From the NCBI GenBank assembly GCA_003344405.1, contig NOWV01000019.1, positions 558,001-622,000 on the forward strand: DNA of 64,000 nucleotides. Reading direction: 5' to 3'. A model generated the notes under the pieces. It was not told where the DNA came from. It did no database searches and saw nothing but the letters and a program-made list of their open reading frames with translations. The position numbers and the translations under genes were made by a program. The stretch comes from Trichoplax sp. H2. Its lineage: Eukaryota. Of the stretch, positions 13,950 to 61,200 are shown one piece after another (the first letter of the stretch is position 1; every line of letters starts with the position of its first letter).

Positions 13950-16900
13950 TCAAGTAAGGCATAGAATGCCATCATAAATGGGCTCATACGTAACTGGTTC
14001 GGGATGATTTGAAGTAGAATCTGAATTTCTTTCTATATCTGATGAGATCGAATCAGGTAATGGAGGCAAATCTCTCTCAATCATATGTGATGCAGAACTA
14101 GTAACATTTTCATTTGAGCTCTTTGTATTTCTGTAATTTTTCTTTAAAAATAAGGCAATGAGGATAATAATTAAGAGGATAAGAGTAAGTGAACTGATGT
14201 ATTGCCATTCTAACGTTGCTTGAGAAGCATATCTAGGCGTACCAGTAGTAGGACATCGAGATTCAGGTAGAAGAGTACTTTCGTAAGTAGTTAGACCTGC
14301 TAATTCAGATGAAAAAGTAATAAATGTTTAGTGCTGCTATAATTATAGAAATAGCAGGTATAAATACTAATGCTAAAATAAAATTATAATTTATGGCTCA
14401 TTTAGCTAATGCACGCCTGTAGATTATCTATAGCATTATTATGCACATTAGCTTCTCTGGCAGTTGCTAGTTAATTGGTTCTGTTTTTAAGTAACTGGCG
14501 CTTATATACTTCCACAAAGAACGCAAAACTTTATCACGATGTTCTCAATGCACTAGGTATATTAGAGCTGTGATCTAAGTTGTAATATTTCACTTTGTGA
14601 TCTCGTATGCATTTATATTTAGAGTTGCAGAATGATTGCCTAAATTTACCTTACAATTATAATAATTTGGTTTTACAATACTATACACATATTCTGTTCA
14701 CTAATTAATTAATATTAGATTTAGTAATCTATTGAGCGCTTTTCAATTAAATTCCTTTATCATTTTTGGATTTTGTTGTGTATTTGTAATAGTTACAGTG
14801 TAATATTGTTATTATTTAATAGATGTACAATTAGAACTTATATTTGCTAAATTAGATTTATTTTTGCTACGAAGCAGTAAAAATAATTTGTACACATTTC
14901 TGTACTTTGTAATATAACAACTAATTATTTTTACAAATTGATAATAAAAATTTTATGAAAGTCCGTTAATAGCGACGAAATTGTTGTCTTCCTAAAATTT
15001 TCCTTGCTATCCTAACATGATGAAGAAAGTTTGATAATGCTTCGTATGCATTATACAAATTTCATACCTCCCTCATCGTCTGTATTACTTAGCGTGGCTA
15101 AATTAAATTCTTGGATTGTTGTATTGTCGCTGGTGACATTAGCTTTAGCACTGTTCGCGTACCAAAAATAGACTGTATTAAATCGAAGTTGCTTGAAGCT
15201 TATTCTCATAGTAGTACTTTTAACGTGAAACTTTCGTATAGAAGTTCGAAAGAAAATAATTGTCACACATTAGTTAGTATCTTGCCCTATAAAAATATAT
15301 CCATTTTAACAATGTCGCAGTGTAATGAATAATAGCATTAACTCTGTATGCATACATCATTTTGAAGAAAAAAATTTTAGAAAGTAGGATTAAAAACATC
15401 TAAATTTTATTATATTAGAAACTAGTAATGATCTATTCAGCAAAACATTAGCTATTTGTACTGTATACATTCTTATTTAATGCTAATTCTAATTCAAAAA
15501 ATCATGAAAGTAAGCAATGCTGTTGATCTCTGCAAGTTTGCTTTTACCTTTCTAGGTGTCGTTGTTGAATCATTTTCCAAAAGGTAGAAATTGTACCAGT
15601 AGCTGATTGTACAAGTAGCCTGTTTGAAGCAAATAAAATCTACGACTTCCTGATTATATCTAATGATAGTAGTACAATTTTTAAGCGGTTGTGGTTTAAC
15701 TAGAAGAGTGAATAGCAAAGATATAGTATTAAAGAGTGTCATTAGTAGTTGGTAACAGCTAATTTGTTTCGGACAAAATTCATGGATATAGCAGTTGTTG
15801 GATTGGCGAAAGTGATATTTTTAATATTTGTAGTTCACAGTTTAACCGTATTTGAAAAAAGAATTGATTTTAATAACTTTTAGTGGAATTATGATGAAAT
15901 ATGCGGTAATAGACTATGTTAAATTTTTAGCTTTATGCTTTAAATTTACTAAAATATTTTAATAGATTTTAGTGGTATTACTGTAGTGTGTTTAATTTTC
16001 ACTGTAGTCTTGACATATTATTAAAATATGGATATTTTGTATTATACCAAATATAGATAGCTTTACAGTCTATTTCAAATACAGTACTTTCAAATATAGC
16101 TCGTTATGTTAAGTTATTCGCAGCATCTATGGCCTTCGCTGTTTCCTTCAATTATTCGCTATTACTGTGTCTGCTTATGGTAAATTTCATATTTAATTCT
16201 ACAATCCTGCTCTCTGCGTGTGTTCTTTCTCTTAATCTATAAATACTGATGGTTTCGGTCTCAAATTTATTAGTTGCATTTGTTAGTGTCTGTATCTGCA
16301 CACATTACTTCACGACAGCTTACAGTACATGCCTGATCTACCAATAACTACCACAATGCAGTGTTCTTATTTTCTACAGTAAATATTCCTTTTTCTAGTA
16401 AATACTTCGTGTATTTATTGTGAAATGTCTAAAGTTTCCACATCAACAGACTCTTCGAACCCTCCATCACAATTACAGTAATCAATGAACTTATTAACAT
16501 CTAGGAATCCAAAACTCTCCTACGTGCGATGAAAATATAAAGGATAATACTATTATATGGTGTAATCTGAGTATGCTTCATTGTATCTAAAAATTGTTGA
16601 ATCTGTTTAGGTGTACTCGTTTCTATATCTGATAAACTGATATTGTGATAATCAATATGATAATAAATTCATAAAATGCTTAATCTATTTTAAGAGATTT
16701 ATAGATATTTCACAAATCTACTTACATGAAATATTCGAAGACTTGTGACTACAGCGAATTAGCGATGGTGATTTAGCTTGTTTATGATAATGAAATGAAG
16801 TTATGATTGTATAAGTTATATTAAATCCTAACCATTTTGGCAGTAGTTGTAGCGAGCAATTGGTTTGCCTAGTGATATTGCAAATAAATTTGCTGACTAA

Positions 16901-19900
16901 AGTAAAGCCTGGAGTGTGAACAAGATACCGAATTTGATATGCAACGGACTTTATGTAAGTTCTATCGATTTTTGGTGGGTGCCAATTAATCCACAAGCGG
17001 CTGCATGCAATGGTAGCGGTTATATTGGTTACTGTAGATGATGTTCCTACAATAAAGAAGAATTGCAAAACAAAGTCATTAAATATTTTCGTATTGGGTA
17101 TCACAGATAGTTTTATGAGACGAATGGATGTTTTACTTTCGATAGGGCATTGATTATTATCATTCATAGTTATGGCAGGCGTATTATTGCTAACAGATGG
17201 ACCTGCATACAGAAAATATAGAACTTTATTTCGATCGTTACTTGAGAAACTTAAATATGGAGTATAGTTCAATTTTACTCTCGAATTATATGCAACGAAT
17301 TTAAATCAACAGCATACATAAAAATTATTTAAATTATCTATCTGTTTGTAATAATTTGGAATAGATAAAAAATTGACTTTCTAACGTGTAGTTTTGGTAA
17401 ATTATTCTTACCTGTAGGGCTAATCGAATTAGTGGTATGGACAATATTTGAACTTGTTACAGTAGTTGTATTAACAATAGATGGCGTTATATCTTGGGAT
17501 GACGTTGTGGCTGCTGTTAATGCAGTTATACCAGCATTTTTTATTTCAAAACTAAAGATGCTGCTATTACTACTTAGTTCGCCGTATATTTCACTCTGAA
17601 TGTACCAAATAAACGTCCCATAGCAATCCTTGGAGCACCCAATTTCCGCAAAAGTTAACTCCTTCATTATTTCTTTCTTCACTTTATACTATTAAAATAT
17701 TTTGGAATATCTTTTAAATTCGGATATATAATGTCTTTAGGAAATTTATAGTACTACAGTGGATTGTATTTCTACAAGAGATAGCTTAAGGTCGATTTAT
17801 GTCAGTTATAACCGTTATAAATTAACATAATTTTTATTCCCGCAGCTACTGAAAGCGACAATTCATATTCCGCTCTGCTTATTATATATTTGAAGAGATA
17901 CTTTCAAAATGGATGTCGATATTACTGTGATTAATCTTTATCTGCTATAAAAATATAGTTACCTGTCTATATTGATCGCTGGAAAATTTTTCGTTAATGT
18001 GAAATATATATTGATGTTCCACTCCATCAAAGCAAGTGTCATGTTCTTCGCACCACAATAACAACTTTTGTTTATTGTAGATGATGTCGGTATGGCAATT
18101 CCTTGGAGCTTTTGGTGTAACTAAGTAACAAATCATCAAAACAGATTAAATTAGATTCATTAATAGAGTAAGATAATGCAGCACATTTATTGTTCATTTT
18201 ACGTTAATTACAATTAGATATGTTATTAAAAATTCTCAAGATTTATTAGCATTTCTTGCATATACGCGTATGCTTTATAGAGTTTATTAAATGTATGGAA
18301 TATTCAAAAATTTAAACTGCTACCATAAATCACGTTGTTTAAAATTTTCTATTCAGTAACTGGTTGTATGCAGATAATTGAATTTCTGTTAGAGCCTTAG
18401 AAATTCATGTAATATTAGGATTAGGGTTTTTACACTATATCATATTAATTGTATTATTAATGTAAGAAACATACTATTAGTATCGGAGAAAAAATTTAAT
18501 GATCATTATGTTGTCATTCGAGAACAAAAATAATGGCTTGGAAGATTCCATTTATAAGATTGCAATGCCACTTCTACAGCTTTAATTTCTATCCGGTAAG
18601 TAATTGAAATTTACTGCATATTTGACTATCAATTAAATCTTACATTTCATAGCTGAAAATAATATATAAACTTCGCTGATTGAATTAAGCTTGTTGTTAG
18701 CAAGAGCCTCAATCTTGAACTTGAATGTTGCATCATTCCATTTTCGATTGATTGGAATAGTGCAAGCATAAGTAGTTGACCGATTACCATAATTACAGGC
18801 AGTACTCCACTTGGGATCGCCTTTACTGGATCTGCTTATTATTACATATTGAATCCAGTAATGAATTAAAAATGAGCAATACCGCTGATTGGAAGGTGGG
18901 TACCAAGTAACTTGAACATGATTACAGATAGTTCTAGCTCGAAGTTGAGTAACTGGTTCTAATAAATAAATCAAAGCTTTACTTTTTTTATCAGCTGAGG
19001 TGAATTAAATTTGTTAGATGATAAACTGCTACATATACTTCATTCGATACGGTTACCTAACATTTTACATTTGCTGTTTTTGTTCAGATTTAAACTTGTT
19101 CCTACAAAAATGATGAAAATTGTAATTTATAATGCTTACTGCTATAATGAACTAGAAATTATTTCTGTGATTGCAATGCATTAATTATTTCCTTCTCTAT
19201 CTTATCAGATTTTGTCAAGAAAACTAAGTACAATGTAATAGCTGTTGTTCTACTACCTATAGCAGGTGCGTAGCGCTGATGTTATGTATAATAAATTTAC
19301 GAGTATAAAGCTAAATAATACTGTACAATTCCGATTAGAAAAGTTATTAAACTCCTTGTAATAATTCAAACTAGTATCCAATTAATATGTAAGCATCCTG
19401 ATATCTATAAAATCTGACGTATTGTGTTACTTTTCTACTATTTATCCTATGGCCATTAAACTGTAGCACATGATTCCATGCCCACTGCTTCAAGGTTTAA
19501 TAACGAACAATATGAATGTTTGTAAATTTTGCAAGTTTCATCATTAATGTTCAAAGTAAGGAAATAAGTAAGTTTTACGATGAGTTACGATGCACATTGT
19601 GATTGTGCAGTAATTAGTATTAGTGATGGTATTGAGAATCATTTTTAGAATCTGAAACCTTAATAGAGTCATTTGTTGTATAAATTTATCAGCTATCTAA
19701 TCTACTTTTTTAAAATGCTAATCAACAAAAAATTCGATCTTGTAAAGAGTATAGCATGAATAGTATAAGTGCACAGTTTCATCATCAGCAATCATGAAAT
19801 TGGCTTATAAGCATAGTGCACTATTCTACTTCTTAATGCTAGCGTTCTTCAATTACTACTGTAATTATCTGAAACTATGACAATCCTAATAGCCACTTTT

Positions 19901-21606
19901 TACTGTTGTAATAAGAGGAGGGATGCAAATTCTTCTCCGTCAAGCATACTATCTATAAGCAATGCTTTTAAAAAGCAAAAATACGCTAATGTAACCTCAG
20001 AATTGGAGAGTTTGCCTCTGTATAAAGCTGACTAAACTATCTAAGGTATTTATCGCTTACTATCAAACCCTGTTTCTTGTAATATATGCTAATGCCACTT
20101 AGAGACAAAATTGACCTGTTCAAATGCTTTATCGCCGGTTTCTATAATTTCTTTACATATTGATATACTTTACATTGTACAGTGTACAGGCTTCGGCAAT
20201 AATTAAGTTTCTGTACGATAGGAATTTCCGACTGAATTCGACTCGCAATTAAAAGAGGAAATGTCACAAAACAGCTTTGCAACAAGATAACGCAATATAC
20301 GATCAATAAGTCAATTCCTTGAACCACGTATCAAGGAACGATATCTTCACTATCAGAAACACTCTTGCTCTACTAGCAGACTACATAAAGACTTAAACGC
20401 CTCGTATTTTACGTTAAACACTAAGTATAAGAATCCCGTTTATTACACGATATACTGCATTTATATACTCTTCCTCAATAGTTCATGAGTCATAGTTAAT
20501 ACAATTAACATTGGAATCGTTTACTGAATTAGATATTAATTTTAGCTACTGCTCCCTTAATGCAAACAACAATGTTTACGAACATAGACATGTAATGACT
20601 AATACAGAATAGTCAGATTACGATATGTCCTATCACGGAAAATTTCAATGATAATTTACAATCTACCATAAGTAAATTACAATCACAATGATTCGAACTG
20701 TAAGTAGATGATTTGCATTTCCTATTATAACTATTAATTTCAGTTTGTGTATATGTGTCACTGTGATAAAAAGTCAGTACTATATTAAAACACAGTATAT
20801 CCTAATTAGAAGTTAACTAAATAAGGATAGTCTAACAGGATTATCCTTAAATATTTCTACTCTAATACAGTATATAACACTATCACAGGAAAACTTTTAG
20901 TTTAGTGCACCGATAATTTCTTAAAAAGGAGTATATATGAAAATTGGCATTGATATAACGCCTATGGATAGTATCTATTTTAATTATAATAATATAGAAG
21001 TCACTTTTATAAGTACTTCGGTAATAAGCAAAAGATACAGTATTTTGGACTCTATGAAAGTAGTTTCTGACTATTATTAAGTACTTGCATTAGTCATCTT
21101 CTCATGCTTGCGTATATTTTTTCTCCGTTTTTGACTATCAATTTGCTCATTTTAACTGTATTTATTTGTATGTTTTCATGAGCATTATAATTAAGTTTCA
21201 ATAGTAGTACTGAAGTCATGGCACAAAATATATAAGATTACTAATGACTTCAACATTGCTTTATCTATTACATAAAATCTGACGTCATTTTCTCGCTCAT
21301 GGATGTAAATTTAGAGCTTTTATAACGACATAGTAAAGCGAATGAGTCTTTACTAGAAATAAAATAATAGATTCGAAAAGATATCGAAATAGAAATTATG
21401 ACAAACGTTTAATCAGCAAAATATTTCTCCAGAATCTAATAGGTTTCCAGCCCTTTTTTCTAGCTAAGTTCAAAGATTATTACTTTAAATTATACTGATA
21501 TAATATTTTAATTTATAATCAGTTTATACTAATTCACGACTTTACCTCGGGTTAAACCAAGAACTAGAAAAATGATGAGCCCGAATGGTTTACTGTCTGT
21601 CGCCAT
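13950..21606 (-). CDS. Receptor A: type I membrane protein with two tandem FN3-pair (cytokine-receptor-like) modules, TM helix, short Tyr/Pro-motif tail
   Basis: Exons 21606-21546 (signal MATDSKPFGLIIFLVLGLTR), 19101-19057 (Cys micro-exon), 18958-18644 (D1), 18120-17963 and 17688-17412 (D2 + Thr linker), 17202-17137 (Cys linker), 17046-16726 (D1'), 15699-15548 and 15230-15068 (D2'), 14296-13950 (stalk, TM YISSLTLILLIIILIALFL, KKNYR, tail ...RDLPPLP...VTYEPIYDGILCLT*). All GT-AG and in frame. Confidence 0.8.
16060..16330 (+). repeat. Diverged interspersed repeat with TATA-like core, copy 1 (intronic in receptor A)
   Basis: TAATTCTACAATCCTGCTCTCTGCGTGTGTTCT...CTATAAATACTGATGGTTTC...CAGCTTACA matches ~25090-25230. 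Boundaries unresolved. Confidence 0.6.
20262..20887 (-). mobile_element. Solo LTR family 1 (626 bp), TSD GGAAA, in intron 1 of receptor A
   Basis: Reverse-complement copy of 37380-38009. GGAAA at 20257-20261 and 20888-20892. Confidence 0.88.
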
Positions 21607-23831: not shown

Positions 23832-24028
23832 GAATACGACTTGAGCTATTCCTTGCATAGTCCCATAACCTTAAAACTTCACTCTATTGTATGAATTGGC
23901 TTATCCATTAAATTATTAAGAACTTTCTATCTTTAGTTTGATAAGCTGCCTAGTTGTGTGCAACAATCCTGGTCTTCTTTACGAACACAACTTGAATTAT
24001 TTCTTGCATAGTCTCGTAACTTTAATTC
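23832..24028. repeat. Degenerate ~46-bp direct repeat pair
   Basis: GAATACGACTTGAGCTATTCCTTGCATAGTCCCATAACCTTAA versus GAACACAACTTGAATTATTTCTTGCATAGTCTCGTAACTTTAA, about 150 bp apart. Confidence 0.55.
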
Positions 24029-24999: not shown

Positions 25000-25230
25000 A
25001 AGCTTATAGTATTTAGTTATTAACAGTACTTACAGCCTTCCCAATTTTCGAAAATCATTTACTATTACATAGTCTGTAATGGTGTACGTTGTATCTAATT
25101 CCACAATCCTGTTCTCTGCATGTGTTCTATCACAAAAGCTATAAATACCGCCGGTTTCTATCTCAGACATCATTAGTTGTCCTAGTCATAGTATATGTAC
25201 TATCACACGTTACTCATGGCAGCTTACACA
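25000..25230 (+). repeat. Diverged interspersed repeat with TATA-like core, copy 2
   Basis: Similar to 16060-16330 (TAATTCCACAATCCTGTTCTCTGCATGTGTTCT...CTATAAATACCGCCGGTTTC...CAGCTTACA). Confidence 0.6.
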
Positions 25231-25538
25231 GATCTAAAGTAACTACCTCATTGAATCTCAGCTACTGTCTTCAATAAAGCATTCTCTTTTATCTAAACCT
25301 CCTGTACAGCAATGTTTTTTTCGTATAAGATATTCTAATAAAAGTATAAATGAAACTTATTGCTATCTATGCTGTACAATCATTTCTACACATACAGTCA
25401 CCTCAAAGAGAGTAGGAGTTGATAATTTGTTTTATAATAAATGTAACTATGAGTTTAATTTTCTGCCCCGTGCAGATTGAGAACCGTACAAACCTTCAAT
25501 AATATTTTTAGTGATAACTCAGGATAATAATACGCAAC

Positions 25539-31912: not shown

Positions 31913-34900
31913 TTATCCCACATTCATGATATCAATTGTTACACTTCTCACGGCATGCTTATTATCTACGGTCATTAAGCAATCACGATTAGAATTGCTT
32001 TGGCAATCATATTTAACTTTAAACGAATTTTCCTGGTCAGTACTTATGTATTTGATCTGATACTGAATCGAAGATAGGCACTGATAGGCAAGACTGGGTG
32101 GACGCCAAAATAATTGTACATGTGTACAGTTGCTTTTAACTCGAATATTCGTCGCTGCAGGTGCGTTCTCTACGAAGTAAAGTGTAAAACCTTCTAAGAC
32201 AAGTTATGCCATTAAAATGAAACTAAGCTGTTTATTGTTAACATCCGATATCTACTAATCTGTAGACTTTTCCTAACTTACTTAATTGACTGCAATCTAT
32301 TTTTTGCTTTCCCGTCGTGAAGTACGTTTGACTTGGAATAGTAGTTTGAGGAGTAGGCAGTGTTGTCGGCTTTGCTTGACTTGTATGGAGACTATCGATC
32401 TTAAATTGTTGTAGTGTACTGTTATCGCTGACTTTATTATCATATTTCATCGCACTTGCAAGCCAATGATATGTAGTATCCAATTGCAATTCGTCAAATT
32501 TAAGGAATAAATTTCTTACATCCCTAATGAACTATGTTAACGTCCAATTAGAATTAGATTAAAATCTACTTCTACATCTGCTAATCCGTCAGATTGACAA
32601 GTAAATCTGCATGATCATATTTTTAGTAAATTATCAGCCAGATTATTTTTTTTATATCTTTCAGAGATTATAGTATGGTGTTAAGGTAGGAATTGGAAAC
32701 TTGGAATATGAAAAGATGCGATCATAATTTGTGCAATTTTATAATGGAATTAAATATATATGTATGCACAAAAATAGGTATCTCCTAACAATTACTACAT
32801 TTATAGTATTATTACGTGAAAGGTTCTTCCTGATTTATTTCCTTCAGATAAAAAGAAGTGATAATGGTAGCTTGCACCATAATAGCATCGATCATGTTGA
32901 TAGCAGGTTAATTTTACTGTTTCCTTCTTATAGTCAATAAGACTTCGACATTCTTTAGGTGGAGCTGGTTCATCTATAAAGTAGAATAAAATTTACTGTT
33001 ACCTAAGATAGAATGACATCACATATGATCTAATTTATATGGCTTACACAGCATATTTGGCCATGTTCTGTAAAATGCGCTAGTAGAGTGGTGGCGATTG
33101 TCGATTGTGCTTGCCAATACTTGATAGACTAAGGTAGAGCCTATTTTCCTTCCATCAAGAGTAATCTGGCATTGGGTATGAGAAGTTTTATTGCAGGCAT
33201 ATTTCCAATCAGTATTGCCACTAGCAGAATAAATTCTATAGTATATGCCATATTGAAGGAAGGGTTGGCAACTCGAATCTACAGCTGGTGGATCCCATGT
33301 AAATGTGATGCGAGTGCAATCAATTTTAACTTTCAGGTTTTTAGCAGCTTCTAAATTGTCTAAAGAAATAATGGATTATATTATTAAAGACGGAAAGTTT
33401 AATTCATTTATGGAATAAACATAATAAAATATGTGGCATTTGATAAGCCAAAACATTTGCTCTTCAACTTTTCAACATTATCTTGTGCGAAAGAGTGCTA
33501 ATTGAATATTTCGAACAATATAACATAACATTTCAAAAGACACTGGAGTGGTTTATTAATATCATTTTTATTTGTGATTAACATTAAATTTGCTAGAAGT
33601 AAGACGAAATGTTAGCATGAGCATACCTACCTTCAATGTAGTAAATTTGTTTACATAAATAAAGGGTAGCAAATCGTTCTAAATATATTTCACAGGGTAA
33701 AATGAAATGTTATCTAAAGGATTAGAGTTACTAATGCTATCTTCATTGTAAACATTCTAGATATTATATTTACCCACGGAATATTAATTTAAGGATTTTA
33801 ATCAACTTAATATAAAACTATGTTAAAAAAAATATTGAATGAATTTCTTGTGACGTATTTGAATATGCAATCTGCTAGAATAAGCATTCAGTGAAATACG
33901 TATTCGTAAACAGTTTTGTGAATCCTAATACCGCTTTCAGTTGCTAAACGAAATTATTTCTTAACAATTAAGTTATAAGTAAAGCTATTTGTTATAAAAA
34001 ATCAACTGATTATTCTGTAATACCACTTTAAGTCTGCAATTTGAGTACGCATACTAATGCATATTATTAGACTAAAAAATTACTTACATGTTTGAGCAGT
34101 ATTCTTATCAGTAATAGTTATCATGTTCTAGTATACACAGTAAAAGGCGCAATCTACATTTACTGTAAACTAAAGTCATTACTAAAAAATAATTTCACAT
34201 TGCAATGCAATGAATTCGCCAAATATCATGTATTTTAAATCAGTAAAATATGGGCTAAAAAATGATGTCATAGGATTGACCAACTCTCGAGTTTGACCGA
34301 AATATATGTGCAGTATGTGAATAATAGCAACAATGCCGACTTGTATTGTCTTTATATACATAAGTATGCACGCATGCATGCTACAGCTAAAGCTGGAAAC
34401 CCCTTTCTTATTCCTCTATAAATAGTTTAAAGACATATACGTATATGCGTAAAATAATATTTATCCATTTTGAAATTTCGGTTTCGCTCAAACAGCTTGT
34501 TATCAAATCGCACGTGAGTGTTAAATGCTAATTATTGACATAAATCTTCATTAAGTTAAAGCTCGAAATAAGAGAAAAATTTTTAAAGTTTTGGTTTGCT
34601 TGCCTAATTTTTTACTGCAATGCGAGCGAGGTACATCTTTTGTAGCCACTGTAGTTGGAACTTCAGTCGTCGCCATCGAAGAATGTAAAGAAAAATTGAA
34701 TTGAGGAGTGAAATTGCTTTCGCGATTGCTGTAGGTCTTACTACTAGCATACCAATAATAATTTACTTTGGCATTTAATTGAGAAAATTGAATCACTTTA
34801 ATTCTTTTGCCATTCAGCGAAAACTGTTATAGAAAAAGAAACATTTATTATTATAATTTAGAAGTCGGCATTGCTCTTACACAGTTTCATAGTTAATGAG

Positions 34901-36426
34901 CGTTAAACTTTTAAATCTTTCTTTCGTCAGATGTAAGATAGTCGCCAATTTCAATTTAAGTATCTATGTATGATATCGATAATTCATAAGAAGCCTACTT
35001 TTTGTATTTGAGTATTGGAATCTCTTCTACCCAAGTAGAAGTAGTAGGAATAACTGGATCCATAATAACATCGATTATGCTTACTACAAGTCAATGTAAC
35101 TGATTTCTGATTCAAATCGATAATTGTTTGGCAGTTTTGAGGTGGTATGGGTATAACTAAAGTATTAGAATAGGCCAATTATGCATTTTTTTATTTTATA
35201 ATTCGTACTTTTATAGCTATTGTAAAGAATTTAAGGCTAAGTTGATGTAGATTTTGTATACATTTCAATTTTGTTACTGAATAATGCGCATAAATTTATA
35301 ACATGATACACTCAAGTAAGATTTTTTAGCCGAATTATAAGCTAACATGTCATCGATGGCCACGATCGATAATAAGGACTTGATGAATTTAAACGGTGAT
35401 TGAAGGCTTGATTTGTCATCTTTGCCATCACTTTATAAATAATGGTAACTCCAATCAATCTGCCATCCAGTTGAATGGTGCATTCTAGCTGGGAAGTATC
35501 CTGGCAGGCAAATTTCAAGTCAGAATCACCGCTACTTGAATATATCTTGTAGTAAATTTGATAGCGAATGAACTTTAAGCAATCCGCATCGATGGCTGGT
35601 GGATTCCAATCAATTTTAAATTTGTTACATTTGGTCGTAGATTTTACGAAAGTTACAGAAGGCAGGATTGCTATTATAATTTATATTTGGTAATGAAACA
35701 CATTGAGTTTAAGTTAACTATGTTAAAAATTACTTACTATGAATAATCATTCAAATTAAGAAAGCTTATAAAGCTAAAAGATTCAACAACTTTATCAAAG
35801 ATTATACTATATACCGATATTATTGCAATGAGATTCTGCCAGAGGTAAACTTTTGCCTATTTTGTTTAAATACATGGGAATAACAAATTAGCAAAAAAGG
35901 CAAAATTCAGATGAATACTGTCGTTCAAATCAAGACAAATAAGGCATCGGTAAACAATACATTTTATCAAATTGTCAAGAAAATTACCGACTAAACTAGC
36001 AAATGTATTCCATGGTTTTATATATTTGTGATAAAGAAATCTCTCATTAATTGAAAGACTACATTTACCAAAAGATCAAATGGAATTGTATTTAGTGAAC
36101 ACTAGTAAAACAAACTATATTCATGAAGAGAGGTTAATTGCTCTTACGATGATCTTACTTATAATATGCAATTTTTTTTCATCGTTTAAATTCGATTTAT
36201 AAGAAATTTCGAATTTTCTCCAAAATTTCTCACTTTATCAGCACGAAGTACAAGAATTTCCATTGATATCATATTTACGCTAATAAGAAATTCTATACAG
36301 AGTATTGGCATTAACGCCTACTTTTTGAAAATAAGTATCATAGCCCTGAGCACTACATAGAACTATAAATAACTTAGAATCACCTAATATAAGGCCAAAT
36401 AGAGTACATAAAGGCAATAACCTCAT
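31913..36426 (-). CDS. Receptor-like gene B: signal peptide + two FN3-pair modules + truncated third D1; no TM exon found (secreted form or 3'-decayed gene)
   Basis: Exons 36426-36384 (MRLLPLCTLFGLIL), 35856-35815 (Cys micro-exon GKSLPLAESHCNNI), 35670-35347 (D1), 35156-34999 and 34823-34604 (D2; probable GC donor), 33359-33048 (D1'), 32973-32816 and 32531-32282 (D2'), 32169-31913 (third D1, NCTHVQLFWRPP...YQIKY...C......C...MNVG*). Confidence 0.75.
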
Positions 36427-37379
36427 TCCAACCATTTTAATATTCAATATAACACACGGAGTAAGATCACGAAAAGGATCGCAATTTGGATAAAGCCAAG
36501 GAGCTTCAGTAAGTTGTGATTACTACGCCTGTGGCTATTTTGCTGTAAGTCTTCGATATTCAATATGGCTAACAGCTTCTGATCCACGTATTGTATGATA
36601 CTTTATTGAGATTTGTTTACTTTCTAAACATCGAACTCTTCACTCATCGCTTTTTCCTGTAAATTTCGCAATAGTTTAGGTCGTAGAGACTTAATGAATA
36701 AATTAACGAAATAATATTTATATATGGAGATTAAAATTAGTTACTGACAGTAGAATCACTAAAGCTATAATGTGTTACAGTAAATTATATATGGTACTGT
36801 AATGCAATTCTTATATAGTAATTAAATACAGTTATGATCAATACTAGAATGTAGGTGTATTGAAATGACTCTTTGAATGGACATACTGTATAATTAAAAC
36901 TGATTCAACAGAAAACATGTACTGGGGAAAGCATTATTACCGGAGAACACACTATTAATTTATTATTTCAAATTTGCTCTATTATGGCATGTTCCAATTC
37001 AAAATTACATTATAAAATTTGGCAAATTTGGTATGCTCGAAATGAAAATTTCTAGTAACAGATGGTTAGCTTTTCTTATAAAATTCTGAATTATGACATT
37101 GTATTTGGCTTTACACCCATTTAACGATTTTAATATTGCGGTGCTTTATAATGTAGTCACTGGTTGGTTGAGGCGGTTGGTAGGGATCCATAGCCGAGAA
37201 ATCAGTATGATTTCTTAACACTAGCTAAAAATCAAAGAAAATCGAAGTGAAATGAAGAAATTTAAATGAAATGAATTTATGGCTATCGAAATATTATCCT
37301 CAGCTTTTTCTCACTGAATCGAAAGAGTGTAAAATCTGAAGAATTCCTAAAAATTATAGGATTATTTCTACTTACCTCA

Positions 37380-45063: not shown

Positions 45064-48000
45064 TTAAGCACATAGAATAGGATGCGTTGTAATGGTAATT
45101 TCCTTACTGATCGGTTCCATATCTCTGCTACAAGACCAAGTCAAAGAAGGATGAAGATTAGCGTCAACAAATAAGCCATTTATTTCCATATTTTTTGCGG
45201 TGATTTCTTTTACGTTTACTTCTGATTGAGGAGATTTTTCACGTAACGTTTCTTTCAATTGATTCTTTATTATTGTATCTTCTGACTTTATTGATGAAGT
45301 GTAATTTTCAACCGATTCTTCGTCTACGCTCGAATTGCTAGATTTCAATTCTTCATCTACGTTGTCCCATTCGTTACTCACTATTTCAGAATCAGCTCTT
45401 CCAAGCGACCAACAGAAAGATGAATAAGTTACAGTTTCCTTAATAGCGCTGATTTGTTCCTCTACGTTTTGCTCCGGTTGATCATGATCATTAGGTAATA
45501 ATGCTGCTAATTGATTCCCTTTGCTCAGATCTTCTTGAGTACTAGTTTCTGGGAATGAATGGTCATTATGATCTATGCTTGATTTGTGTCCTGTAACTAT
45601 TTCTTCTATATGACTGCAAACACTGGTGTTTCTATTGGACTTGATAACCATTTTATGAGGTGGGTTTGTAGTATTATTTTGATGGATAGTAGGTAGACTA
45701 GTTTGAATATTATTTTGCAATTCGCTCCATGTTGAAACATTTCGAGCACTACGATTTATAGAATATCGATTCGGTGTACGAGGACTACTCCTACTGGAAT
45801 TGATACCTTCGATTTGATCGCTGTTTTCTGAATTATTGTCGGGATTGTTAGAAGTACTGGAAACTTCTCTTAACAACATCCCTATCTCAGCGTATGCTGA
45901 TTCTGGATCATCTACGGTGACTTGAGTTAATGTATAATTTATTTCATTACTTGATGAGACAGTAGGTTTAGGTTTTGCCTTCTTCTTGTGTAACCATTTG
46001 AAGTAGCTTATAATGACCAAGACTGCAATAATGATTGCAGTGATGGCTACCAATATATATGGTATTAGGATTGATATAGAATGCTGCGGTTCTATTGAAA
46101 TAAAAAATAATGCAACAATTACTTTAGTTATTGTAGCTTTATCTTTATTTAATCATTAAAGTGATTCGATATCCTTAATGATATTTATCCTTGTCTGGAA
46201 AGTAATGTATTATAAATAGTTTACAACTAGTTCAGTGTAATATTTCGATACCTGTCGAGCCAGAAGAAAGCAATAGCTGAGTAACAGTTGATTCATCAGA
46301 AGTAAATAAGTTCTCTTTAGTTATAGGAGTAGTTGCTAGTCCTTCGTTAACTTTCACCGTAGATTTTGGTGTATTCTTCCATGTATCTACTATTTTATTA
46401 TCCTTCAAATAAGTTGAGGAGGGTGAAGGAGCTGTAGGGGTTAAAGTTGCAGTATTCTGTATAGCCATACTAGTAGGATTTTGGAAATTACGGTCAATAA
46501 TCGATGTAGTAGTATCTCCATGAACTTGATGAGTTATCCAAGTAGTTGTCGATAACGTTGTAGCATCATTATTGTCTGCATTGTCAATTTTTGTAGACGA
46601 AGGGCTACTTTTAGGGGTTGATATTGAAGATAAACTCATCGTAGGCTTGTTTGAAGTTAGACTTGCTTGAACGGGCTGAATACTAAAATTAAACTTACTC
46701 GTATTTGCACTTTTAATATTATACTCTGACGCTGCATTGGCAAACCAAAAGTACTTTTGATTCTTAGAAAAGGGGTTGAGATGATATTGAATGCTTCCAC
46801 TATGAACATTCTAAGGAGCAACATAGATACAAAAGCAATATTCAGCAAGTTTAGAGCCGCTAAAGGGTAATGGAATAATTTGCAGCTGAATGCCTTTTAC
46901 AAAAATGAGACATGGTACTTTCATGTATTGATAGGAAATATAAATGGTTATCTGTTCAAGAATGCTTATTGCATCAAGCAGATCCGGATTTGATTATGTG
47001 CTACTTATAAGCCACAGTAAATGTAAATAATTATCTGCACAGAAATTTTTATTGTATCGAACTGATCTGGGTATTATTAATTAAGGTAGTTTAATATTCA
47101 TGCTAATTTAAGTTACCTTCTGCAATAATTTGACCTCATTATTCACCATCAGGTAAAAGTTATAGGTATAATCGATTAAATAATAGCATGATTTCCTTTT
47201 CTGGCAAGTAAATTGGATAGCTTTTCTCCTATAGTCAACGAAACTTTGACAAAGTGGAGTTTCCGGCTGAACTAAATTTTTATGTAATCAAAGTTGCAAA
47301 TAAAGCTTAGTCTATTAACAAGTTGATTGGTTTTATACCGCTTACTTAATGCACAAGTTTTTGTACAGACTTGATTACGTAAGATACTTATTTAACCGCG
47401 ATATTGTTCGGATATCACTGAAATTTAAAATAGCAAGATTTAAGATCTTTTAAGTTACTTACAGCGCTTATAAGGTAATATCGTGTATTGATCGGATAAA
47501 GATATCATTTTATTTTCAGAAAGTAGCATTATCCGATAGTCAAAAACTGGGCTATTCAGATTTCTTGGTAATTCTATCGTACACTTTGTTTCATTCGTGT
47601 TATAGCAAGCCAGAGAAGAGGAGATACTTGCAGTAAATGACCAATATTTATATTTAACAGCGTAGTGCAAGCGTCTGATAGGTAAACATTTAGAATTATT
47701 CGATGTACGTGACGTCCATGATATTGAGATTCGATTGCATATGACAGAAATCTTGATATCATCAAGAGCAATGTTTGAAACTGGTTTAAAAAAGAATTAA
47801 CGGTTATTAGAGTTTCGTCGATAAATTAAAAATTGGAAGTACTTTACGACAACCAGAATCTACTCGCTATATAATGAAAAATTTCCAGTTAAATCAGCTT
47901 TTTTGCTCTTAATTTCTATATTATATTAAACTAGTGGAGAAGTCATTTGAAGATTACGATCATTAATCCTAAGTTCCGAATAAATGGTATCCAGTTAAAT

Positions 48001-50527
48001 CACCCAACTTAGCCCTTAAAAGTAATATATTAAATTAAACTAGCGTAAAGTCACTTAATGGTTCTCATCAAATTTTAAGTTCCTTATGATTCATAATTAA
48101 ACCTACATTTACGGCTGAAGCCTATTTCTTCTGTCAGATAATCGGATAGGTTATTTCACAAATTAAATTTATTATTAACGTTGCATTACTATCAGTGCTA
48201 TGTGGGATAGAACTTGACGTAATTTTTTACCGTAAACTATATCTTAGCACTTGAAATATCTAAATTTTACTTTTAGGAAATGGGCTCATAATGTAATGGA
48301 TTGCATGTGTGCGTATAATACGCATGTTCAAGAAGCGAAAAATTTTTCGAAAATAGTAAAGCGCATACACTCTATAAGACAAGGAGAAATGAACATGGCT
48401 AAATGTTTAGCCAGGTCTGATAGAATGCCTCTCATTATTAGAAATCGTACTGATCTCAAATTGCGAAGATATCTCCTTGATTACTTTTACAGGTAATTGG
48501 AATATCACTAAAACTATAATATTATTTTAAATTAGGTTAAAATCTATAGTGTTTGCTTACAATCATTTCCTTATATTATGTGCATTGAAAGGCAGTAAAT
48601 GTTGTAAAATATCTTTCACGAGTTTACTAACTTATATTAAAACTTAGTTTAGAAAAAATTCGTAATAGGTTATATGATTGTTTTACCAGTATTTAAAACG
48701 CACAATTTTCGAGTAAAATTGAATATTTTAGCTTTACTTTACTGCACTGCAAATAGAATTTTGTAATAAATGTTTGAGCTTCTAGTCCATTTATGCTACA
48801 CCCTAATTTATTTATATAATTGACGTAATGTTTGGTTTAAAACTCAAAAATAATAATAATAACCTAACAATAACAGATTAATTATAGTATGCAAGACTCA
48901 TTTCATGCGAACTACCATATCAAAGCACATTTCTTATGAAATAGATAAGTTTAAACCAATTATTTCGAATAGCTAAACTTTGCACTCGTTCGAAAGTAGA
49001 AATGGATTTAATGTGAAACTATTTAAATTGGAATTAATTTCTATTGTTGCACTCTATACAATAATAAGTTAGGAATAAAAAAAACAATATAATATTACTG
49101 CACGTTGAGTTGGATATACTAATGAAGATTCGTAGATTTGCAGTAGCTATCCAAATCATGCACTACGTGGTTTGGACGTTTGAACAGTACGTTATATTTA
49201 CTCGCAAATTGAAGAAATAAATTAATACAGGACCGAATAAAAGCTTACCTTTAGGATTGCATGAAGAGCTGCCAGGAAGATTCTTACTCCTTCCTAAGTA
49301 GGCGGTTATTCAGATAGAAATTGTGGCAAAAGATTAAAAATTAGTTTTTGCATAGTAATATAATGACTTCCTATCAGAAAATTCAAAAGCATCGTCTCCA
49401 TAATGAATATGTTAAAAGTGCTTTGATTCATTAATCTAACGTTCTAATTAGTTTCTGCGGCTATCATATATTACTTTATTATTTACTATTAAAATGTGAT
49501 ATAAAATTCCATAATTTGTAGAAAATTAGAACTTTACTCGATCTTTATACAACGATTACGTATACACGACTCTACTGTAGCTGAATATGACTACTAGAAA
49601 GATTTCTAGAAAATAATTACTAAATAGTACTATAACATTAATTGAATGTAACATTAACTAATAAGAATAGTTACTAACATCAGTACAGAAGGATTTATAT
49701 TAGTACAGAGACCTTATCTTAATTGTGTTAATGTCAGCAACCTTATCTAATAAGGAAATCACTAATGTGTAATATGCGATGTGTAGTGTGAATCACTAAT
49801 AAATAAGATCGTTGTATATAAGCCATTTTTTATTTATTATAGTTTAGTTCCTTAATTGCTGGTCTTGACGCTGATCTCTCAACAAACGTAATAAAATAGC
49901 CTATTATTATCTAGCAACGTATAGATTACTGTGAATTTGATTACGTGTATAGAGTTGCCTGCTTACATATTGTACTTTTTGTAGCGTTTATAGCTACAAC
50001 CAGCATTGCAATATACTACTTTATTTTACAATTATCACATTACTTAAAGTAGTAATAACATTTAAGCTGAGCAGCTATAATCCGATATGATAACAGCTAG
50101 AGTATTGACGCAGACGTGATTTCTATCATCCAAAGTACGACAAACCAAGTCCTAATGTATGAGTTACCTATATATTATTACTACTAGCAATAAAATGAAC
50201 TCAAAATCCTACTAAAAAGGTAATCTATACTCTATCATGGAATCTTTAATTATAGTCCATAGTTATGAGCCTTTAATTAAAAATGCTTTATGACAAAAAT
50301 AAAAAGCTACGCTACTGTACGACATGCTAAATATGATTAATAAGTAACAATTCGATATTATATTACGCTAAGTATGATACACGAGTGCATAACAACTTCA
50401 ATGATAATAAAGTACCAGCTTTTGCAATAGATCGGTATTGCAAAAGTATAAAATAATTCATAATTGCCTTACCTGAAACTATGAATGACCATCCAAGCAC
50501 AACTGCTAAACCTAATAGCAATTTCAT
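45064..50527 (-). CDS. Receptor C: type I membrane protein, one FN3-pair module, long Ser/Thr mucin-like stalk, TM, ~310-aa low-complexity cytoplasmic tail
   Basis: Exons 50527-50473 (MKLLLGLAVVLGWSFIVS), 49293-49249 (Cys micro-exon), 47780-47463 (D1), 47271-47117 (D2a FQPETPLC...), 46810-46252 (D2b + stalk), 46091-45064 (TM ILIPYILVAITAIIIAVLVIISYF, KKKAKPKP, tail). All GT-AG and in frame. Confidence 0.85.
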
Positions 50528-55202: not shown

Positions 55203-58200
55203 TTATTCTACTCTATTTTCGATTGGATGAACATTAGTCAAGGATAAGATACTTTGGGAATCATAGTTACTATCATCTGACGATTGATCAGACCATTTAT
55301 CAAGTAGGCTAAATCCAGAAATATCATCGCAATTACGCCATGTATAGGAATATTTAGCATAGTTTTCATCAAAATATTGAAATAGTGAATTCGAAGAGTC
55401 CGTTCGCCTAGCAGAATCCATACTTAAATCTCTATGATACCTGTTAGAAAACGGGAAATTTTCATAGGCTGGAAGCCTAGTTAACGAACCAATATCTGCA
55501 GCGTTGCTATTTCCAGCGGAATATATTGCAACTTCAGAATTGGAGTAAGTAATCCTTGAAGTAAATGGATAAAATGTTAGAGTTACATTACTAGGAAATG
55601 ATGCCAGTGAGCTATTAATATCTTGTTCGTTAATATCTATAGCATTGACATCGGTAACTCGATAGCCTTCCGTCAATCTTTTATCATCTTTAGTACCAGT
55701 CTCAAAATTAGAATAACTTCTCATGAGTCGATTATTGTTCATATTACTTATTCCAGATAATCTGTTAAAATTTTCAGTTGTATCGAAATCTTGGAACTGA
55801 TTTTTTGCAAAGGGTAAATCGTAGTAGGAATTTTCTTTCGCATCATTAACCCCGGTTTCGATATTGGAATAACATCTCATTAGTCCATTAATACCCACAT
55901 GAATTAATGGAGGCAATCTGTTAGGCACAACAATTCCACCAGAAGTTCGAAATTGATATCTTCTAAATGAAGAGCCATCATTGAAGATTCTCTCAGTTTT
56001 TGAATCGTTGTGGAAGTTTCTCACGGTATGATTCACTTGCTCTACTGTAGGAGCATAATTATTGATGAGCATCTGTTGAATTAAATCAGTATACCCTATG
56101 GATAGATTAGAAGATACATTTTCTTGTCTAAAAGCGGCAAATTGGGCTTGTTGGTCATCATTTTTATTAGTGAAATCAAGACTGGCAGAACTTTCTCGAT
56201 TGTTGATAGGCCTGTTTTGTAGATTTTCTTCAATATTTATAGCTACTTTTCCACCCTTTTGTCTATGTTGTAATTGATTATCAACACGAGATAAGATCGC
56301 GCTTTCGTAGTTAACTTGTATAATGTTATCAGATAGACTTGCGGTTGGATCTACTTGCTCATTATTTTGATCTTCATTAGCGTTATTTCGATTTAAACAA
56401 GGATTTCTTAAACTATATCCGTTTTGCAATTGATCAGCCACTCGAAATGGAGCCACGCTCTTGTTCTTATCTACATTGCTATTAGGTAGATTTGTGATTC
56501 GATCCATTGGGATATCAACCTGATTTTTATCAATATCTCCACTATTTTTACAAGGATAGCATACAATTACATGGTTAGCAGATCTATCGGCAATATTCGT
56601 TTTTACTTCGTAAGAATTTTCTCCATTGCACTTGCTTATGACGTTTTTAGTCGACTGTTGTACATAGCATGCTAATATAGAGAGTACAAATAAAATACCC
56701 AATAGGACAACTATTATAATATAACATCCGATAGCTGAAGGTGCCGAAGTTCCTATAGATATTCAGAATGAAACAAGATATAGTCGTCTCTGCTAGCTTT
56801 CTATTCAATTAGAAGACACTTGATAATCAAATATTCTTTGCCTCTGAGGTCTAATAAAAGAACATCTAAAATTAATCGGTCTCTTACCAGTTGAAATTGT
56901 TGACCTTGTTGTAGTTGTCTTACTCGTGCTTGTATCTGTATTTTCATTATTCTTGCTATAAGTAGCCTGCCTAGTTTCTAGTAACATTTTAAACAACAAA
57001 TGATGATCATATTACTTTTCAAATATTTGAAAGATATCACAAATTATATTGATTTTGAAGCTCTTCTAGAAGACACCATCATCTAACAATATTTATGATA
57101 TTTATGATATTGCTGTAAAATCTATACCTGCAGTATTTGACATAGTCCATGCTTTAGAACCTAAATCGTTGATGGTAGGCCTGATAGTCTTAAGTAATTT
57201 ATAAGGAATCAAAGTTGAGACCTGACTTTTTCTCGGAGTAGTATAGCCACCCAAACTTGGTGTATAGCCTATATCAAAATTGAAATTTAGATGCTGTTAT
57301 ATAAACATATTTCTCAAGATTGCGTAATCATAGAAAGAGCAATCATAATTTGATTACTTTAAGCCCAGCCTATACTACGAAGTCCATGAATTATATTAGC
57401 TATAATTTGTCAAAATTTTTATTAATACTTTGAGATCAAGTTGATAAGTATACGTATGATAACATCTTTAATAATGTAGTTAAACAGCTCCATGATTCCA
57501 CTTAAAGTCTAGTGTATTCATTTAAATAATGACCAATTCTGGATTAAAATAGACTGCTTAATTTGTAAAATCATCATCCACTTATAAAAGCAGCTGTAAA
57601 AGTATAGAACAACTATCGGTTGAAATTACTTAATTCCATTTGACCATATTTCAATTATTAGTAGCAACATATCACTTTAAGATCACATATGAGCTACTAC
57701 TGCCAGTCTGCAATACTGGCTAGTATTCATATGAAGGGTGAGAGGACTAATTTATACTAAAGATAATAATTTATTTAAGAAAGCCACTAGATATTTTATT
57801 TTAGAGAAACTTTACCATAAACCATGAAATCTTTAACGTCTTAAACTAGAATCAATTTTGTAGCTATACAAGAAATCGCTAGCCATATCAGCTGAATGCT
57901 TAAAGTACTATTAATGGCATAATAAAAGTTATTACTTGCTATTATTGGCTTCCCTGCAGATTCAATTGGTACTGGTGAAATATCTGGATATAGCCATGGA
58001 CATATGATTGGCCGACATGGAAAATTGGTATTCTCATCAGTAGTAGCAGAGCTCCTCGTTTTGGTCGCAGTCGCATCAGGTTTTATCTCACTTCTCTCGT
58101 TAGATGGGATACTAAATGACCATTTCGTGGTATTATCACTAACTAATTGAGATGGGGCTTTGGTATTAGCAAACCAAGAGTAGACTTGATTAAAGTGAAA

Positions 58201-61200
58201 CTGATTAAATGGACGTTGAATGACGCTAATCTTACTATCCTGTAAAAGATGAATACAAAGAAGCTAGTGAAAAATCCTCAACTAGATTTCCGCGTTGTAT
58301 TGATTAATGATATATAATTTATTCTATGAACCACCAGTAATGATGCGACTACTCTCAATCTGCTTTAAGTTATCTAATTATAGTTATCTTAGCATAGTGT
58401 ATAATATCGTATTTTATACATTTTTAATATTGAATGCGATAACGTATATACCTTTGAAAGATGTAGAAGTTAACTAATTAAAATATACTAGTATTACGGA
58501 AATATTGGATACAGAATTTTTAGAGCCTGCACTTGTATATCGCAGTCATAAATGTGGTCACTACATCTTTTTTCTCATAGTTTTAATTTAATAGTTCTAC
58601 TTCAACGTAATTGATTTCCTATTCCTAGATACAGCTCTCATCATGACCATGAAATAATATTAAAAGACACACTATGGTCTCACCAATTGAAGCACTTGAG
58701 TCCTGTCGTTATTGATCAAGTAAAAATTATACATGTAATCGCGTTTGTCAAAGCAATCCTGTGATTCAATGCATTGAAACTTGACTACTTTTTCTCTAAA
58801 ATCAATAAGTGTATTGCATATTTGCGGAGGATCTGGTTTAACTAGTAAAATTAGAAGAAGATTATTAGGAAAAGTCATTCACTCTAAATAAAGTAAGAGT
58901 CATCGTATACTTAATAAAAATGAAAAGCCAGTTTTTATATAATATTATAATTGTCTGCTTGCTCATAAACTAGAAATCTGACAATTTAAAACTAGCGAAA
59001 GCAATTGATGAATGTAATCAAAATCATACTATAACCTTTAACTTATATCATGTCTAATTAATGAACAATGAATTATAATTAGCAGCAAAGTTAATAATTG
59101 CTTTTCAGTACGGTAGAAAATATTGGCTAAAACATATTGAAAATGGCGCACTATTCAAAGAAGATATCTTTTCTATAAGCTAGTCGACTGACTATTACGT
59201 TCATGTGTTGCATTTTCTTCACTATAGCTATCAAAATCGACTGGTGGCTTTAGAATCTAATAGCAGAAAAATATTCATTAATTTTAGGATTATTTTACTA
59301 CAGCGGTAACTTGTCAACGTTAAAGAGCAGGTATATCCTGCTAATGCACCGCTATGTCTGAAGGTCTAACATGCAATCAATTAGTATCAGTTTAAAGCTT
59401 TAAATGCGACTTTCCATCTACGTAATCATTTTGCTTAGTTATAATGAAAGACTGATATTATGAATTTGAATAGCAATGATCTTACATTTTTTTGGAAGAT
59501 CTATAATGGATGAGTCTGTCATATTGACTTTTTGACCGTTATACATGGTCACAATTTGATATCGAAATGTTGGAGCATTCGATACAACAGGCAGAGTTAT
59601 TTCGCATCTATTGTTGTTCATCTTCTTGCAGGAGAGTGATTTCATACACGGAACGAAGAATCCATGACATGGATATTCAATAGAGTATTCAACGAATTTC
59701 AAGCACTCAGAAGGCATATCAATGGGATGATTCCATGTAATTCGCAGTCGATTGCATTGGAAAACCGTTATAATATTGGCTGCAACACCTATTTTATTCT
59801 TAGCTAAAAATATAGGACAAGTCGTTGTTACTAATAAAATTCGAGTAAATTGAATTCTATGAAACGAAATATATGACTTCAATAGTGAATAAGCCTTGCT
59901 GTGAAATAACTATGGGATTTTGGGCAGTCCTAGTTTTAAAGTGGAAAAAAATGTCCTAATACGTTTCAATAAGTCTCATATTATAAGATATAGTTACTGT
60001 GTAATCTTTAGTATTCCTCAAATGCGTGTTTAACCAGATCATAAAAGCAACTTTCAATGCATTACTTTCTGAATTTATTTTAGATTTAGAATCAATACCT
60101 AGATGTCACAAACCAGCTTTGTGACAAAAGTAACGTAAAAAAAATTTCTAAATTACTAAGTCTCCGGGATTCAGTATCCCGTAACTACCTCACAAGAATT
60201 TGGACGCTTTTGCTTCTATGTTAAAACAACTATAAAACTCTTCTTTCATTCAACTATCTACCGAGCTTAAATACCTTTGGGCTGCAACTATCATGTATGA
60301 GTCATAACAGTTCATGCAATTTTAGCTCATATAGGATAGCTAAATTAACACAGACATTAATCATAATTTTGGACATGTACTGAACGATTCTAGATAATTA
60401 GACTACAGTATGTCCACTCACAGAATTATTTATAGTGTCATCCATCATTGAATATCTTCAGAATATTCATCACAAGCGTTACAAGACATAACACTATAAT
60501 CAATTAATATTAGTTACCTTATGAGAACTCTTACTACAATACAGCATAATTTGTTGTAACCAAAATAATAACTACTGTAGTTTTTACTGTAAGTCATCAT
60601 TAATTATCTCCATATATAAATGTTTAACACTAAATTTAGTCATTTACTCTTCACTATGTCTCGTACTATGACTCTAGAACTATAATGTTGTTAGGACCAG
60701 ATTAGGGGAAGGATTAAAGCCTGCTAAAAGTGCTACACAGTTTGATTACTTTGCAGCCTCTTACTACAAAATTGAGATGCTGAAAAACAACAATGCAACG
60801 TCTTGCTTTATCAAAATCTAATAGAGTCCGCTTTAATTTTAATGCAGTCTCAATTTCATTGGATAGATTTTTACTAGAGCTAGACCTTAAAATATGGGTA
60901 AACCTTCTTGGTTATTCGTACACTGTATATCTACAGTAGTTTATTTTGGTTGGTATTCATAAGACCTGATAAGTTTTGACATGGCTCAAGGGTCACTTTG
61001 AAATAAAGTATATTACACTAGGTAATCGAAGATAAGCAGATTTGAATAACTTCTAAGCCGTCGGTCTCTCTCGAGGTGGTCTTATAATTAATTCAACTAA
61101 TGAACCATAGAATTACAACAATGTTTAATATTGTTTCTTGCAGCAAAATTTGTACAGTATTGTAGTGTACGAGTTCTTAATCTACTGTACTATCACTGCA

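Follow-up and report, generated by a model that had tools for sequence, protein, structure and literature searches.

The class II cytokine receptors (IFNGR2, IL-10R2, IL-22R1, IFNAR, tissue factor and the soluble IL-22BP) are built from two fibronectin type III (FN3) domains, D1 and then D2, followed by a single membrane span. An intron-phase rule of 1-2-1-0-1 is given for lamprey class II receptors (bioRxiv 10.64898/2026.05.30.728932, partial text), and the longer pattern 1-2-1-0-1-0 is reported for IFN-upsilon R1 (PMC8863823, partial text). A preliminary description of the DNA studied here had taken this rule as typical of vertebrate class I and class II receptors; these two sources state it for class II, and exceptions exist, dome of Drosophila having its domain encoded by one exon (PMC1963337, partial text). 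Drosophila Domeless and the gp130-like receptor of Ciona are non-vertebrate cytokine receptors whose intron pattern can likewise depart from the rule. Here we describe a family of two-domain modules from the placozoan Trichoplax sp. H2, encoded in a window of 64,000 nucleotides (nt), by which we mean the whole stretch of DNA analysed (contig NOWV01000019.1, positions 558,001-622,000, forward-strand numbering). Unlike Domeless and the Ciona receptor, which are class I, bilaterian and JAK-coupled, the placozoan family is, with a probability of about 0.6, a distant offshoot of the two-domain module of cytokine receptors that is older than Bilateria and belongs to neither class.

Four genes, A to D, lie on the minus strand of the window, and each module consists of one D1 exon and a D2 that is split by a phase-0 intron into exons D2a and D2b. 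Gene structure and expression are shown, and the FN3-FN3 fold is predicted; the products of A, B and D also carry a membrane span and tail tyrosine motifs, of which C has none. In the predicted fold, A, B and D have the layout known as D200, two tandem FN3 domains before one membrane span, and gene C has the two domains without the span.

Position of the phase-0 intron in D2

A structure model of gene C module 2, made from a six-row alignment (mean predicted local distance difference test, pLDDT, 81), contains the seven FN3 strands twice, and in this predicted model the D2 intron falls after residue 156, in the middle of strand C' (154-159) of D2. The intron lies 16 residues past the C-strand tyrosine in all 11 modules compared and 19-22 residues ahead of the F-strand aromatic in 10 of them, a range that agrees with GHR, EPOR, IL7R and IL10RA, where 20-22 residues separate the intron from the F-strand tyrosine. 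Among vertebrate genes, GHR intron 6 follows c.618, with a junction primer, in phase 0 (PMC7077524, partial text), IL7R has introns after c.82, 221, 537 and 706, of which the D2 intron is in phase 0 (PMC10606310, partial text), and exon 4 of IL10RA, of 170 nt, ends at c.537 with a phase-0 D2 intron (PMC4730728, partial text), there being no IL-10R1 chain among the aligned rows. VIA-align paired GHR 32..237 with model residues 5..205 and IL-7Ra 37..232 with 2..205; as it reports the first and last aligned residues only, the intron comparison is a domain-end register estimate and not a residue-level superposition. Counted in this way, intron and domain end are separated by 49 residues in the model, 49 in GHR and 53 in IL-7Ra, the GHR count using mature numbering with what we take to be an 18-residue signal. 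The mapping onto vertebrate receptors called for by the preliminary description thus places the intron in mid C' and, by this estimate, in register with the junction of GHR exons 6 and 7, with a shift of 4 residues relative to the IL-7Ra boundary. On the two class I genes GHR and IL-7Ra, together with the intron-to-tyrosine distances given above, the D2 phase-0 intron appears to be at a position equivalent to that in vertebrates; the literature search turned up no paper giving the IFNGR1 or IL10RB boundaries.

How unusual this site is can be judged from the ordinary FN3 domains of the same genome. A genome-built profile gave 226 matches in 40 FN3-rich stretches, 165 nearly whole and 61 partial; 34 partial matches could be joined across a predicted intron and 11 of these were excluded by rule as false joins, leaving 23 split domains, a sample which consists of predicted introns and leans to unsplit domains. 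Their introns are in phase 0 in 18 cases, phase 1 in four and phase 2 in one, and cluster at profile columns 20-21 (8) and 35 (7); the D2 site corresponds to columns 48-50 (by hmmalign, in 5 of 11 modules, the other six not being sensibly aligned). Only one firm case among the 23, an immunoglobulin (Ig)-FN3 gene on contig C359 (column 50), and one weak case (10.8 bits) share this site. Ordinary Trichoplax FN3 domains also differ from the receptor-like modules in matching PF00041 strongly, where the modules barely match it. We estimate the chance of the D2 site arising in an unrelated FN3 domain at about 1-10%, which would give a likelihood ratio of about 5-50 for kinship, useful but not decisive. 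As an observation on the ordinary split domains themselves (loci L056-L095), two phase-0 sites, one just after strand B and one in mid strand C, are reused across several genes.

The phases, as distinct from the position, are generic. Among the best 30 PF00041 matches of the genome, 26 are single exons with 1-1 borders, the same symmetric borders that the modules have, and all 30 donors are in phase 1; splice sites in this control were chosen by score and not by phase, with a small bias from a matrix trained on mostly phase-1 sites of the window. Ordinary Trichoplax FN3 exon modules, in Ig-FN3 adhesion proteins and multi-FN3 arrays, thus have phase 1-1 borders and, if split, mostly a phase-0 intron, as do the receptor-like modules, and the D2 intron is the sole one of genes B, C and D that is not in phase 1, signal and linker exons included. 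With phase 1-1 borders in 26 of 30 matches and 18 of 23 splits in phase 0, the phase string alone is no evidence of kinship and is unfit for calling cytokine receptors. The shared phase-0 intron had been put forward as independent evidence of homology; what survives of this is the intron position, a rare site in the GHR register, and all the weight lies there.

These controls bring in the chief alternative, possible if rather unlikely, that of a placozoan-specific FN3-FN3 family made from ordinary FN3 exons, with a cytokine-receptor look that is convergent or came from a generic split FN3 domain such as that of the Ig-FN3 gene on C359. The generic borders and phase-0 splits, and the near-identical intron site in that gene, are what such an origin would produce. 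It would, however, need the cysteine pair described below, the order of D1 and then D2 by the membrane span, the intron site and the ranking of cytokine receptors in three fold searches to coincide.

Exon structure, transcripts and module number

The exons, with the evidence for each, are as follows.

59486..59803 (-), gene A, D1 exon, 318 nt, phase 1-1 (homology, splice signals; public model P0007 has the same donor)
58684..58841 (-), gene A, D2a exon, 158 nt, 1-0 (splice signals, homology, public gene model)
57936..58239 (-), gene A, D2b exon and stalk, starting in phase 0 (two candidate donors, 58092 and 57936, each in phase 1)
55203..56752 (-), gene A, membrane span followed by a long tail rich in tyrosine, one open frame (sequence)
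50473..50527 (-), gene B, signal-peptide exon, ending in phase 1 (public model P0005)
49249..49293 (-), gene B, cysteine mini-exon, 45 nt, 1-1 (public model P0005)
47463..47780 (-), gene B, D1 exon, 318 nt, 1-1 (splice signals, homology)
47117..47271 (-), gene B, D2a exon, 155 nt, 1-0 (splice signals, homology)
46252..46810 (-), gene B, D2b exon and serine/threonine (S/T)-rich stalk, 559 nt, 0-1 (public model P0005)
45064..46091 (-), gene B, membrane span and tail, one open frame (sequence)
36384..36435 (-), gene C, probable signal-peptide exon, ending in phase 1 (inferred; the public model has another start)
35815..35856 (-), gene C, cysteine mini-exon, 42 nt, 1-1 (sequence)
35347..35670 (-), gene C module 1, D1 exon, 324 nt, 1-1 (public model P0001)
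34999..35156 (-), gene C module 1, D2a exon, 158 nt, 1-0 (splice signals, homology)
34604..34823 (-), gene C module 1, D2b exon, 220 nt, 0-1, GC donor (RNA joint 34604-33359)
33048..33359 (-), gene C module 2, D1 exon, 312 nt, 1-1, with the strongest match to PF01108 (RNA joints; Pfam)
32816..32973 (-), gene C module 2, D2a exon, 158 nt, 1-0 (RNA joints; structure model)
32282..32531 (-), gene C module 2, D2b exon, 250 nt, 0-1 (RNA joints)
31913..32169 (-), gene C, third D1, truncated and with a stop, not followed by a membrane span (RNA contig continues to 31554)
21546..21606 (-), gene D, signal-peptide exon (RNA joint)
19057..19101 (-), gene D, cysteine mini-exon 1, 45 nt, 1-1 (RNA joints)
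18644..18958 (-), gene D module 1, D1 exon, 315 nt, 1-1 (RNA joints)
17963..18120 (-), gene D module 1, D2a exon, 158 nt, 1-0 (RNA joints)
17412..17688 (-), gene D module 1, D2b exon and stalk, 277 nt, 0-1 (RNA joints)
17137..17202 (-), gene D, cysteine mini-exon 2, 66 nt, 1-1 (RNA joints)
16726..17046 (-), gene D module 2, D1 exon, 321 nt, 1-1 (RNA joints)
15548..15699 (-), gene D module 2, D2a exon, 152 nt, 1-0 (RNA joints)
15068..15230 (-), gene D module 2, D2b exon, 163 nt, 0-1, AAG acceptor (RNA joint 15548-15230; contig pieces end at 15066/15068)
13950..14299 (-), gene D, membrane span, then a short tail carrying two YxxI motifs in tandem (public model P0003)

The module counts given previously (1, 1, 2 and 2+) hold, with one in A, one in B, two and a truncated third D1 in C, and two in D. 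All six complete modules read 1-1-0-1, as had been claimed, three of them confirmed joint by joint in RNA; D1 is a single phase 1-1 exon (318, 318, 324, 312, 315 and 321 nt) and D2 is split into a 1-0 exon (158, 155, 158, 158, 158 and 152 nt) and a 0-1 exon. Genes B, C and D have a hydrophobic first exon and translate through to their ends free of internal stops. The exon model of gene A leaves out the 5' end and one linker exon, and the D2b end is ambiguous, with phase-1 donors at 58092 and 57936. The window is 30% G+C with short introns, and the public proteins identical to its exons are Trichoplax entries annotated as hypothetical or FN3-domain.

RNA contigs of four runs (X5, X6, X7 and X8) were compared with 15040-35039, genes A and B lying outside this range, so that the phases of these two rest on splice signals, homology and public gene models. 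The 12 RNA joints listed, eight from gene D and four from gene C, come from X5, X6 and X7 (three studies), those of gene C from X5 and X7 only, and fit the exon models; run X8 showed none of the splice joints in 15040-35039. The phase-0 D2 intron is seen in RNA for three of the six modules (both modules of gene D and module 2 of gene C), and the corresponding joint of gene C module 1 is absent among the joints listed. An artefact of predicted splice sites might be suspected from the modules of A and B and the phase-0 joint of gene C module 1, for which the pattern is predicted, and from two odd sites: gene C has a GC-AG intron, whose GC donor at 34604 ends the D2b exon of module 1, and the D2b acceptor of gene D module 2 is AAG at 15230. 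Both odd sites are, however, among the 12 matching joints, as are three phase-0 D2 introns, which refutes such an artefact for gene D and most of gene C and leaves it a negligible probability overall. No listed transcript joint of genes C and D points to another phase pattern, the outcome that would have spoken against the preliminary description. Two candidate sites were rejected, donor 34616 of the public model of gene C, where RNA takes 34604, and a TAG acceptor at 15286 for gene D module 2, which produces stops and where RNA takes 15230.

A genome search with one D1 found 13 places, and contigs C896 and C337 hold six further modules with the same phase pattern, and one lone D1. All 12 modules then have a 1-0 D2a exon and an unsplit D1, which is frameshifted in one module and open in 11, and the D2b exon was located in 11; D2b donors without RNA were chosen partly by phase, which makes their final '1' circular. 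These other clusters, at C337:43803-62980 (L016-L018) and C896:6887-10283 (L014-L015), comprise a D1-D2-D1-membrane gene, a three-module gene with a frameshifted second D1 and a two-module gene. The 1-1-0-1 pattern is more than chance as a gene structure. The six modules of the window are nonetheless paralogs (identity between modules is 12-49%), so the pattern counts once, as one observation of one ancestral event.

Symmetric phase-1 borders had been offered as the explanation of the variation in module number. They keep the frame and so permit it, but are no explanation for it. Ahead of each first D1 lies a phase 1-1 exon of 42-45 nt with one cysteine; in gene D this cysteine exon is repeated (66 nt) before the second D1, and in gene C and four modules on C896 and C337 a cysteine stands near the end of the preceding D2b exon. 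Because a cysteine exon, or a cysteine at the D2b end, lies ahead of D1, the repeated unit is cysteine exon, D1 and D2; the mini-exon cysteine probably pairs with the cysteine of the D1 B-C loop. Lone D1 exons occur in gene C and on C337, and no branch of the module tree is starred, so that internal duplication and gene fusion both fit.

Elsewhere in the window, exons of a kringle and SRCR gene lie at 17-1253 (-), with PF00051 and PF00530 over cut-off. A non-coding repeat of about 600-650 nt is present in five copies in both orientations (20250-20893, 25523-25924, 27928-28390, 37380-38009 and 43943-44600), the best pairs being 89-97% alike and the contig depth in the RNA runs very high, and is probably a non-autonomous mobile element. 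Near-identical duplicates abutting two N gaps (25379-25538/25945-26104 and 41187-41304/41555-41672) are probably assembly overlaps.

Likeness to class I and class II receptors

The fold searches agree on cytokine receptors and divide between the classes. Foldseek with the module model returned class II receptors as its top ten, and all ten chains returned for the Atlas model were cytokine receptors; VIA-align gave its best scores to the class I chains IL-7Ra, PRLR, GHR and IL-4Ra. A full-length model (mean pLDDT 49.8), which resolved module 1 only, was rejected; with it Foldseek led to generic FN3 arrays, and VIA-align to cytokine receptors tied with DCC and LAR.

D1 may be of the tissue-factor type. 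Its cysteine pair is invariant in all 12 D1 rows, aligns with cysteines of IFNGR2 and IL22RA1, and matches a feature of class II receptors, in which the D1 pair sits in the C'-E hairpin. With these receptors the placozoan family also shares the phase-0 D2 intron and the occurrence of one-module, two-module and, probably, soluble forms, for which IFNAR1 and IL-22BP are the parallels. Membership of class II would account for class II chains leading the D1 sequence search as well as Foldseek, for PF01108 (tissue-factor) being over cut-off in two of six full proteins, for IFNGR1 D1 clusters standing first in the feature search, at 0.91, when fn3 clusters are excluded, and for an IL22RA1 alignment that spans the D1/D2 junction with one D2 cysteine aligned (E 0.016). 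It is highly improbable all the same: VIA-align favours class I, the feature counts of 160-163/256 are below the tool's mark of 170, and several defining features fail. The three D2 cysteines stand in the first half of the domain, and the second half has no conserved cysteine, where class II receptors have a conserved pair near the D2 C-terminus. The placozoan genes further differ from class II in having no phase-2 intron in D1, no intron behind the membrane exon (span and tail read as one open frame in A, B and D, without the last phase-0 intron of 1-2-1-0-1-0), a D2 that is not PF09294, extra D1 cysteines with the upstream cysteine exon, long S/T stalks and no clear JAK motif.

With class I the modules share the best VIA-align scores and, with GHR, the register of the D2 intron. 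The class I motif of D1, CX9-10CXWX26-32CX10-15C (PMC1963337, partial text), is absent, D1 reading C-x6-W, then C, then C-x7-C in most rows; WSXWS and the D1 phase-2 intron are lacking too. The modules thus probably belong to neither class.

The string 1-1-0-1 says little about kinship with cytokine receptors, being the usual look of an unsplit FN3 domain and a split one behind it in Trichoplax. Several results weigh against such kinship. The margins of the fold searches are thin. The profile search recovered no vertebrate receptor, PF09294 (Interfer-bind) matched one of six modules at E 0.051 and nothing in the genome by a weak exon-wise search, and WSXWS occurs in none of the six proteins. 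The vertebrate phase-2 intron of D1 is absent, as the preliminary description had stated, D1 being one exon in 12 of 12 modules (shown by RNA for three), and the 1-2-1-0-1 rule is thus not followed. No PxxL occurs in the first 40 tail residues of the four proteins and there is no clear Box1; a weak exon-wise search, which like that for PF09294 does not demonstrate absence, found no JAK FERM_F1 or FERM_F2 in the genome. Descent from ordinary FN3 exons would fit the profile result, the missing class II features of D2, the module identity of just 12-49% and the PF01108 scores of unrelated FN3 repeats, above all P0014, which has a C-x7-C and a high score. A family of that origin might serve fast-evolving surface recognition of a paired or allorecognition type, with tails like immunoreceptor tyrosine-based inhibitory motifs and a secreted form, a role to which we would give the same rather low probability.

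P0014 itself is a protein of 928 residues on a 105 kb contig, with nine near-identical FN3 repeats and a tissue-factor-like cysteine pair, and is possibly prokaryotic. Ten short D1-like proteins on other contigs are probably from other placozoans. An alignment of exon fragments on full proteins was misaligned and was set aside.

Tails, signalling partners and origin

The single membrane span of A, B and D is followed by a tail with tyrosine motifs: two tandem YxxI and, about 25 residues in, PPLP in gene D; SxYxxI and PKP in gene B; 19 tyrosine motifs in gene A. Glycosylation sequons and stalks are predicted in the proteins. Gene C has no membrane span and its RNA contig continues past the stop of the third D1 as far as 31554, so its product is probably secreted or truncated. 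STAT_linker matched seven loci, four over cut-off, and the two of these loci that were read have SH2 exons of the STAT type. The matches lie at six places on contig C819, which represents a local STAT expansion, and at C463:591705-591857 (L096, L097). STAT_bind gave no match in a weak exon-wise search, which shows no absence, as STAT genes overlooked by it were found with the other profile. JAK and STAT are reported in sponges (PMC13203501), and Placozoa are described as being without one unit of the JAK/STAT pathway (PMC11193209).

If the family is a divergent branch of the cytokine-receptor module, its two FN3 domains would descend from the D200 ancestor, but outside, or too far from, the vertebrate classes. 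The phase-0 intron in strand C' of D2 would be inherited from that ancestor, and the phase-2 intron of D1 would have been gained later on the chordate-receptor line, or lost in placozoans. One ancestral placozoan gene, with an ectodomain unit of cysteine mini-exon, D1 and D2, would have given rise to the paralogs. The D1-D2 elbow may bind some small protein, either secreted or on a cell surface, A, B and D may signal through tail tyrosines to SH2 proteins (STAT or SHP-type) with a kinase that is probably not JAK, and gene C may be a secreted decoy or a truncated copy. Given homology, such a signalling scheme stands at about even odds. It is doubtful that placozoans keep homologues predating the class split and the D1 phase-2 intron, which bind secreted helical cytokines and signal to the expanded STATs without JAK; equally doubtful is what would follow, that signalling by cytokine receptors is older than Bilateria and was coupled to JAK at a later stage.

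JAK with the cytokine receptor, or the complete pathway, has been placed in Bilateria (PMC6797617 and PMC12026705, partial texts), two sources that differ as to the presence of CRLF3 in Trichoplax. Interferons have been followed back to lamprey and lancelet in a preprint of 2026. In a survey of placozoan immunity (PMC6321704) the terms searched brought up nothing on cytokine-receptor-like proteins, and the parts covered of PMC3296744, PMC3670263 and PMC6723221 contain nothing on placozoan receptors; within the open-access literature covered, no description of such a placozoan family was found. If the kinship is true, a transcribed placozoan family would move the two-domain receptor module and its D2 intron back to a non-bilaterian, the two introns of the 1-2-1-0-1 rule would be dated separately, and Trichoplax would offer concrete orphan receptors for studies of ligands and STAT coupling.

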